Origin: Dictyostelium discoideum
Taxonomy: Eukaryota
DNA length: 64,000 nt
Reading direction: 5' to 3'
Assembly: GCA_000004695.1 (NCBI GenBank)
Contig: CM000152.2
Coordinates: forward strand, 4,928,001-4,992,000
Within the stretch, counting starts at the first letter, position 1. Each line of letters starts with the position of its first letter. A program made the translations under genes and the position numbers. Under the pieces are notes generated by a model. That model was not told where the DNA came from. It was given only the letters and a program-made list of their open reading frames with translations, and searched no databases. Positions 15,706 through 17,686 of the stretch are shown piece after piece.

Positions 15706-16176
15706 ATGAAATTATTAGTACTACGTTTAATTTTAATTATTTCAACAATTTTTGTTTTGTTAAATTTAAGTTGTATGGTGAATGGATTATCATTAAAAAG
15801 AAAATCAATTGTGTCAGATCATTGGGTAAATGTTGCAAATTCAATCGATGGTAAAACATTAACTTATAATACAATTGCAAATAAGGTGGATTTCCTTCAA
15901 TTTAGAGTTGACAGAGAAGATGAAAGTAGAATTTTAAATGATATGTATATAAATGTTACTTCAGTTAAAGCTGCAAGATTTGGTATATTCTTCAATAATT
16001 TCAATCCTGCAAATTCATCAAACGATAGTAGAGGTAGAGCTGGCTATTGTCCAATTTGGTTTGCTACTTGTGGTGCTGAAACTCCATACTTTTCATTAGG
16101 TTCAAATAATTCATATACTAGTGACTTAACATTTACTGTAACTGTCAGGGATGAAATTAAATTATGTGATTTCTAA
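15706..16176 (+). CDS. Small secreted protein of 156 aa with an N-terminal signal peptide. This is paralog A of a tandem pair.
   Basis: An ATG start is followed by the hydrophobic leader MKLLVLRLILIISTIFVLLNLSC. It carries several N-x-S/T sites and a Cys motif CPIWFATCGAE. It is a single exon and is homologous to ORF 17192..17686 (FxxDRxD, NDxYxN(V/I)T, CPxWFxxCGxE, TVRD). Confidence 0.7.
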   Translation: MKLLVLRLILIISTIFVLLNLSCMVNGLSLKRKSIVSDHWVNVANSIDGKTLTYNTIANKVDFLQFRVDREDESRILNDMYINVTSVKAARFGIFFNNFNPANSSNDSRGRAGYCPIWFATCGAETPYFSLGSNNSYTSDLTFTVTVRDEIKLCDF

Positions 16177-16195
16177 ACAATTTTTATTTTGTTTT

Positions 16196-16249
<54 letters not shown>

Positions 16250-16350
16250 AAAAAACAAAAAAAAACAAAAAAAAAAAAAAAAAATACAAATTCATATTTA
16301 TATTTATATTTATATTATATTTATATATTTAATTACATTCACCACAAATA

Positions 16351-16386
<36 letters not shown>

Positions 16387-16990
16387 ATAATGAATTTTTT
16401 TTTATTTTATTTATTTTTTGTTATTTTATGAAGTTTATTTAAAAAGATTTAAGTTTTCCGATTCTGAAATTATTTTCTAATTAAGTTCCAAATTTTATTT
16501 TAAAAAAATAAATAGAGACATTGTTTATAATTATTTTTTGACGGTGTTTTTTATTTTAGTAAAGTTTGACCACCTTTTTCGTTTAATTCGATGAAAATGC
16601 AAATTATGCCAAAAAGTCTCCCTTAAAATAATAATTTTAAAATTTTTAATTTTTTTATTGTAACAAACTTTTAAATAAAAATTTTTAAAATATTTTACCC
16701 ACAAAATATTTATGGAAAGATAAATTTTTAAAATAATAAAAAAAAAAAAAAAAGTAAAAAAGTATTGGATAAAATATATATATATAACCCACAAAATTCG
16801 ATTTCCAAAAAAAAAAAAAAATTACCAAAATAATATAAAAAATATATAAAAATAAATATTTTCACAAAACCCGGTTATTTTGATGGGTTCCATTAATATT
16901 ATAATAATCTCAACAGGTTTCTTAATTTTTCTATTTTATTTTATTATAATTAATTTCTATTTAATTTTATTTTATTATAATTTTAATTTA

Positions 16991-17029
<39 letters not shown>

Positions 17030-17065
17030 TTTTTAAATAATTAAAAAAATTAAAACTATAAAAAA

Positions 17066-17096
<31 letters not shown>

Positions 17097-17191
17097 AAAT
17101 AATAAACAAAAATATTTAAGAAGAAGAATATTTTTTTAAATAAAAAAAAAAATAAAATAAAGAAAATAAAAAAAAAAAAATAAAAAGAAAA

Positions 17192-17686
17192 TTGAAAATT
17201 TTAATTCTATTAACAATTTTAATTATTTCAAGTTTTTTAATTTCAAATTGTTGTATTGATGCATTAATATTAAGTAAAAGAATTGGAAACATAGGCTATG
17301 ATTGGAATATCGTTGCAAAATCAAATGATGCTGAAAGAATAGTTTATAATTTCACACTTTCTGGAACAAATTTATATCAATTTAAAATTGATAGAACTGA
17401 TGGAGATACAATTTTCAATGATTTATATTTAAATATTACAACTACAAATCCAAGACAATATACTTACATAAACAAATACTTTTCAACAAATGAAATTGCA
17501 GATGTCCATTCTGATCCAAATGGTAAGCCATCATTTTGTCCAGCATGGTTTGGAGGTTGTGGTTCTGAACAATCTTTCTTTTCAATTTCATTAAATAATA
17601 CTATAACTTTCAAAGGTATAAGAAATAGTCCATCTGTACCAATGACAATTTATGTTACTGTTCGTGATGTTGCAACTCTTTGTTAA
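17192..17686 (+). CDS. Paralog B of the tandem secreted pair (164 aa). The initiator position is TTG rather than ATG. It is a possible pseudogene or a mis-start.
   Basis: It aligns with paralog A from the first codon (TTG AAA ATT TTA ATT CTA against ATG AAA TTA TTA GTA CTA). There is no in-frame ATG upstream before a TAA at about 17153. The first internal Met is near the C-terminus. The rest of the ORF is intact, including the signal-like leader and CPAWFGGCGSE. Confidence 0.45.
   Translation: MKILILLTILIISSFLISNCCIDALILSKRIGNIGYDWNIVAKSNDAERIVYNFTLSGTNLYQFKIDRTDGDTIFNDLYLNITTTNPRQYTYINKYFSTNEIADVHSDPNGKPSFCPAWFGGCGSEQSFFSISLNNTITFKGIRNSPSVPMTIYVTVRDVATLC

Follow-up and report, generated by a model that had tools for sequence, protein, structure and literature searches.

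A TTG at the start of a conserved Dictyostelium gene: one extra T in the AX4 reference and its probable origin

Two neighboring open reading frames of Dictyostelium discoideum raise the question of why one of them, in all other respects intact, begins with TTG. The sequence analyzed is a stretch of 64,000 nucleotides, referred to here as the window, from chromosome 3 of strain AX4, as given in the Sanger reference of 2005. The original prediction, made from the letters of this stretch alone, described a tandem pair of small secreted paralogs and proposed that the TTG of the second copy reflects a very recent start loss, a non-AUG initiation or a base-call error. We set the locus beside its counterparts in eight other assemblies, three of D. 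discoideum, two of 'cf. discoideum', and those of D. citrinum, D. dimigraforme and D. firmibasis.

Holland et al., PNAS 2025 (PMC12745789, PRJNA1300491) are the source of the new assemblies; the strains of their project comprise AX2-214, its only laboratory strain, two tropical D. discoideum isolates, two cryptic sister species, D. citrinum and D. dimigraforme. The assembly designated ACTFIT is 99.5% identical to the window across 10.5 kb and, on the basis of this identity and the project strain table, is most probably AX2-214; we refer to it as the AX2-like assembly. AX2-214 and AX4 derive from one wild parent. In the two further D. discoideum assemblies, 3–5% of the sites in the copy A and copy B genes are not as in the window.

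The gene pair and its protein family

The two frames have the predicted lengths of 156 and 164 aa at the coordinates given in Table 1, and BLASTP supports their paralogy, with 32% identity across 145 aa (E=3e-25), a similarity far above chance level. The copy A protein is an exact 156-aa match to DDB_G0281771 (XP_640630.1, UniProt Q54TG1) of D. discoideum AX4, and a search of a literature library found no papers mentioning DDB_G0281771. The paralog pair is real and already deposited as hypothetical proteins. Its surroundings have a GC content of about 16–17% and long poly(A)/poly(T) spacers of the kind usual in Dictyostelium. All nine loci share one gene order (TOR kinase, copy A, copy B, a Fuz/Mon1-type longin-domain gene and a DnaJ gene), and a DEAD-box helicase gene comes next in those loci whose DNA extends far enough. 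Between the two copies lies a microsatellite, (ATT)n with about 11 units (16997–17030), whose length is equal in the AX2-like assembly.

Table 1 Coordinates of the gene pair and associated features in the window
Feature	Position	Strand	Description or basis
Copy A	15706–16176	+	ATG start, 156 aa, single-exon, DDB_G0281771; hydrophobic leader and predicted β-sandwich
Codon 39 of copy A	15822	+	T gives CAT (His39); private to the window
Conserved block, 260–500 bp 5' of copy B	16690–16935	+	83–87% identity to divergent isolates
In-frame stop TAA 5' of the TTG	17153–17155	+	Direct sequence reading
ATTG, ancestral ATG split by one extra T (17192 or 17193)	17191–17194	+	Pairwise and nine-way DNA alignments
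Copy B	17192–17686	+	Open frame, 164 codons, begins with TTG
Sole in-frame ATG of copy B, codon 151	17642–17644	+	ATG scan of 16177–17700

The original prediction gave the two proteins a common signal-peptide leader, common glycosylation sites and a common CPxWFxxCGxE...TVRD core. Their N-termini are hydrophobic, with a mean Kyte-Doolittle value of 2.5 at residues 3–22 versus −0.3 for the remainder. In both copies the leader consists of MK, a hydrophobic stretch of about 20 residues and then VNG or IDA, and neither protein has a hydrophobic C-terminal tail. In the AlphaFold2 model, which was made for copy A only, residues 2–22 form a helix. Two N-x-S/T sequons are kept in both copies (N83-x-T85 and N134-N-S/T, copy A numbering). 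The copies also have CPxW(F/Y)xxCG in common, as well as the C-terminal motif T(V/I)R(D/N/E)xxxLC, and across the D. discoideum species group both CPxW(F/Y)xxCG and T(V/I)R(D/N/E) are retained.

The predicted fold is a generic jelly-roll β-sandwich of eight to nine strands. A Pfam scan of both proteins returned sub-threshold noise only; its hits, Neurensin and CSL4_N, were rejected as family assignments on that ground. A search of the family profile against PDB sequences gave no match, and no significant sequence or profile match was found to the GOLD, YPM or PirA-like jelly-roll families. When a profile of 16 family members was searched against 1.84 billion representative proteins, the matches were the family itself and two proteins of D. 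purpureum. A 1,913-aa tandem-repeat protein, hit over eight short stretches (E=4e-9) in the same search, was treated as spurious. Judging from these matches, D. discoideum and close Dictyostelium relatives as far out as D. purpureum are the only carriers of the family.

The two D. purpureum proteins, XP_003288785.1 and XP_003290631.1, lie on separate contigs, and one is an ortholog of copy A, the other of copy B. Because D. purpureum has one ortholog per copy, the duplication is older than the split between D. discoideum and D. purpureum, and the notion of a recent duplication was not borne out. The first cysteine of CPxW is replaced in both orthologs (YAPLW and YTPLW) and is therefore not essential to the fold, while C122 and C154 (copy A numbering) are also kept in D. 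purpureum. As a working model, these proteins would be soluble, N-glycosylated extracellular β-sandwiches that bind a ligand or a surface, with a putative C122–C154 disulfide stabilizing the sandwich.

Each of the eight other assemblies carries both copies intact. Pairwise dN/dS of copy A lies between 0.10 and 0.30, with one exception of 0.53 that stems from three differences between two close isolates. For copy B the values span 0.11–0.73, mostly 0.3–0.65, and remain below 1 in each of the 35 comparisons that contain differences. Since dN/dS is below 1 for both and higher for copy B, both copies are maintained by selection, copy B more loosely, and these ratios indicate that copy B is under purifying selection in the other assemblies.

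The spacer upstream of copy B is AT-rich and poorly alignable apart from one conserved block, a 22-nt core of which (around GATGGGTTCCATTAATAT) recurs in D. dimigraforme. The block contains two ACCCACA motifs, at 16697 and 16787, which resemble G-box binding factor half-sites. Its conservation suggests that it is probably a promoter element.

One inserted T at the start of copy B

Direct reading of the frames agreed with the prediction that copy A starts with ATG and copy B with TTG at the matching position, and that copy B is otherwise uninterrupted, its frame remaining open to 17686. The TTG thus stood as described, but to call it a substitution within a conserved initiator is not quite accurate. 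The alignments show that ATG became ATTG through a one-base T insertion in copy B (AAAATGAAA to AAAATTGAAA), which rules out an A-to-T substitution as the origin of the TTG. At this position the window reads GAAAATTGAAA / AAAATTGA, while AAAATGA is found in every one of the other assemblies; in direct comparison, ACTFIT locus L001 reads ...AAAAAGAAAATGAAAATTTTA... and the window ...AAAAAGAAAATTGAAAATTTTA.... In the nine-way alignment, 8/8 other assemblies have AAAATGA(A/G)AATT, and no sequence but the window has the extra T. Because ATG is found in all eight, the TTG state is derived and private to the window.

Apart from the extra T, ACTFIT has the same copy B coding sequence as the window (0 differences in 489 nt), and over 1,051 aligned bp just one further base differs, at a poly-T boundary (17097). 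With its TTG read as Met, copy B is an exact match to KAM9950324.1 (ACTFIT_011574), 164 aa. No AX4 member was found in the protein cluster of copy B or among its homologs, and we conclude from this that AX4 has no protein model for copy B. Its close homologs occur only in recently deposited assemblies. Re-sequencing of position 17192 had been proposed as a check, which the other assemblies in effect supply for the probable sister strain and for wild isolates, all of which show ATG.

In D. citrinum, a 303-aa model (KAN0009512.1, ACTFIU_006807) joins copy A and copy B by an 'intron' that skips the C-terminus of copy A and the leader of copy B. This fusion is almost certainly an annotation artefact.

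As had also been predicted, the upstream stop closes the frame before any in-frame ATG is reached, and the single internal ATG is unusable, since initiation there would yield a 14-residue peptide. In the window, therefore, the ancestral ATG of copy B is destroyed and no usable alternative in-frame ATG is available.

A spliced upstream exon could supply a start codon in frame if an ATG at 16883 were joined, through a donor at 16887 or 16917, to an acceptor AG at 17161–17162. That ATG is in frame 0, both candidate introns are multiples of 3, and AG dinucleotides occur in the interval from the stop (17153) to the TTG. However, Dictyostelium introns generally begin with GTAA or GTAT, and the two donors (GTTCCA and GTTTCT) lack this start, which the inspected nearby intron (GTAATA) has. 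Furthermore, all orthologs were called as single-exon genes that start at the very ATG disrupted by the extra T, and the AX2-like upstream DNA, the same but for the base at 17097, needs no such exon. We regard splicing as the least probable of the explanations considered here.

Alternatively, copy B might be functional through an evolved near-cognate UUG initiation in a favorable context. The surroundings of the TTG (AAAA-UUG-A) provide an A at both −3 and +4, and the fully open frame would permit translation from it. In eukaryotes, a near-cognate UUG can sustain initiation at a few percent of the AUG level. Against this proposal, TTG occurs in none of the eight orthologous loci and ATG in all of them, including the nearly identical sister assembly. 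Because the non-AUG codon is not conserved in orthologs, UUG cannot be an evolved feature, and this part of the original prediction is contradicted; we consider it very improbable. That AX4 truly carries ATTG and still makes copy B at a low level from the UUG is improbable as well, if slightly less so.

Mutation or reference error

The inserted T may be a mutation of the strain or a fault of its reference sequence. In the former case a T duplication would have removed the start codon in the AX3/AX4 lineage after its split from the AX2 lineage, leaving copy B in AX4 as a null or severe hypomorph, a nascent pseudogene without further decay. The insertion is indeed derived and private to the AX4 reference, and the coding sequence is otherwise untouched, as expected of a decades-old event; with no difference from the AX2-like coding sequence in 489 nt, such a loss, if real, would be very recent. 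Selection on copy B is also weaker (dN/dS mostly 0.3–0.65, versus mostly 0.1–0.3 for copy A), and for this reason its loss may be tolerated in axenic culture.

The sequence around the gene pair argues against this account. We compared ACTFIT locus L001 with the window over positions 12156–22694 and polarized the differences at this locus with three more distant assemblies. The 19 differences comprise nine in homopolymer length, nine substitutions and the T insertion. ACTFIT has the shorter run in all nine homopolymer cases. All eight polarizable substitutions are derived in the window, as is the T insertion, the outgroups siding with ACTFIT. Besides the T insertion, the only coding difference in this interval is His39 of copy A; the codon is CAA (Gln) in all other D. 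discoideum assemblies examined and specifies Asp or Glu in more distant relatives, and residue 39 of the deposited AX4 protein Q54TG1 may be erroneous.

AX3, the parent of AX4, was chemically mutagenized with nitrosoguanidine, for which a spectrum of G:C to A:T transitions is expected. The window-private substitutions are mostly transversions, and since a G:C to A:T transition accounts for only one of the eight, nitrosoguanidine was judged an unlikely source of them. Identity of the window allele with the neighboring base was considered as an error signature and dropped, as the ancestral allele, too, equals its neighbor in 7/9 cases, which is expected in sequence so AT-rich.

A second ACTFIT locus, L009, was compared with the window over 23 kb (40802–63682). 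It revealed 55 substitution blocks and 22 indel blocks, all but one of which lie, by position, outside called gene spans, in non-coding AT-rich sequence. The remaining block, a 32-base difference at 43506, falls within a gene span and outside the main ORF of that gene. The differences form tight clusters, at 46918–46974 (8 substitutions in 57 bp), 59275–59291 (4 in 17 bp), 61098–61424 and 62275–62412, and 8.4 kb of the comparison contains no substitution at all. The first two clusters are situated in intergenic spacers whose flanking genes are identical in the AX2-like assembly. The last two jointly hold roughly 50 substitutions in the 1.3 kb before a gap, and cluster 62275–62412 abuts this 100-N assembly gap (62422–62521), which the AX2-like assembly spans with about 300 bases of real sequence. 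This pattern resembles the low-coverage read ends of a Sanger assembly, not the divergence of two strains.

The same interval contains a single-exon gene of 1,021 aa (50870–53935, minus strand) that is identical in the AX2-like assembly and whose homologs are SNF2-family helicases, named SMARCAL1 or ZRANB3-like (annealing helicases) in their sources. A homolog search with this SNF2-like neighbor for outgroup loci returned distant homologs only.

Among the pure homopolymer-length differences in the two compared intervals, the run is longer in the window in nearly all cases, with an excess of as many as 18 bases (16200–16217). As this comparison sets a Sanger window against a Nanopore/Illumina assembly, the strikingly one-sided lengths mean either that the long-read assembly collapses runs or that the Sanger assembly inflates them.

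The known mutation rate bears on the same choice. Lines of AX4 descent used for mutation accumulation had 1,916 candidate differences from the reference in common, which the authors put down to reference errors or clone differences (Saxer et al., PMC3466296). The rate measured in that study is extremely low, at 2.9e-11 per site per generation (PMC3466296), and a true divergence of AX2 from AX4 by about one difference per kb is for this reason not credible. About one private difference per kb, mostly transversions, is thus implausible for two strains from the same parent, and the clusters of private differences beside an assembly gap point to sequence quality and not to biology. A real start loss is consequently the less likely account of the T, yet a serious rival in light of the derived insertion and the weaker constraint.

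We infer that the extra T is probably an erroneous base call in the consensus of the AX4 Sanger reference of 2005, and among the three causes originally named this one is the best supported. Only one assembly carries the variant, which an independent assembly of a near-identical strain lacks, and the neighboring differences also arose on the reference branch, in numbers too high for real divergence. Several observations weigh against an error. The insertion site is outside any long homopolymer, and reads entering it from the coding side should have good quality at this point. A distance of 95 bp separates the extra T from the next private difference, which places the site outside obvious error clusters. 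Moreover, real private mutations exist in the AX3/AX4 lineage, AX3 having been mutagenized. Taken together, the TTG anomaly is most probably not biological.

On this reading, the locus holds two single-exon genes from an old tandem duplication, whose small products are predicted to be secreted and N-glycosylated, each with a cleavable hydrophobic leader followed by a jelly-roll β-sandwich of eight to nine strands. In the organism, copy B most likely starts at an ordinary ATG by normal scanning and enters the secretory pathway, as predicted for its orthologs. The extra T is most likely a miscalled base in a region of 16–17% GC rich in long homopolymers, and apparently kept gene finders from calling copy B in AX4.

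Consequences and comparison with known systems

As a conserved gene, copy B is found intact in all the sequenced relatives examined, D. purpureum among them, and is missing from the annotation of AX4, the reference for most work on Dictyostelium. It lacks an AX4 protein model apparently because of one extra T, and is therefore invisible to transcriptome, proteome and knockout resources based on AX4. The value of the finding lies mainly in curation. It also calls for caution beyond this gene, as the AX4 reference holds patches of private differences in AT-rich spacers, where promoter or start-codon anomalies should be read with care. If, on the other hand, the T is real, AX2 and AX4, the two most used laboratory strains, differ in making the predicted secreted copy B, which would be a concrete, if small, distinction between them. 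Were the UUG in addition used, AX4 would be a natural hypomorph and an in vivo reporter of near-cognate initiation in Dictyostelium, with AX2 as the isogenic AUG control.

The closest comparisons are within the family itself. DDB_G0281771, which is copy A and an uncharacterized protein in AX4, belongs to the same family as copy B and has the same predicted fold and leader; the two are 32% identical, and DDB_G0281771 is the more tightly constrained. ACTFIT_011574 has ATG where the window has ATTG and is an annotated gene, whereas AX4 has no protein model at that place. Among proteins of known structure, the small jelly-roll domains set beside the family were the YPM superantigen (1pm4), the GOLD domains of p24/TMED proteins (7rrm, 5gu5), the PirA toxin (7fcn), and the PPC and collagen-binding domains of collagenases.

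With regard to initiation, the nearest known systems are the yeast genes GRS1 (UUG) and ALA1 (ACG), which use near-cognate starts whose non-AUG codon is conserved among orthologs. Copy B is like them in presenting a UUG in good context before an AUG-less frame. It differs from them in that its TTG is unique to one assembly.
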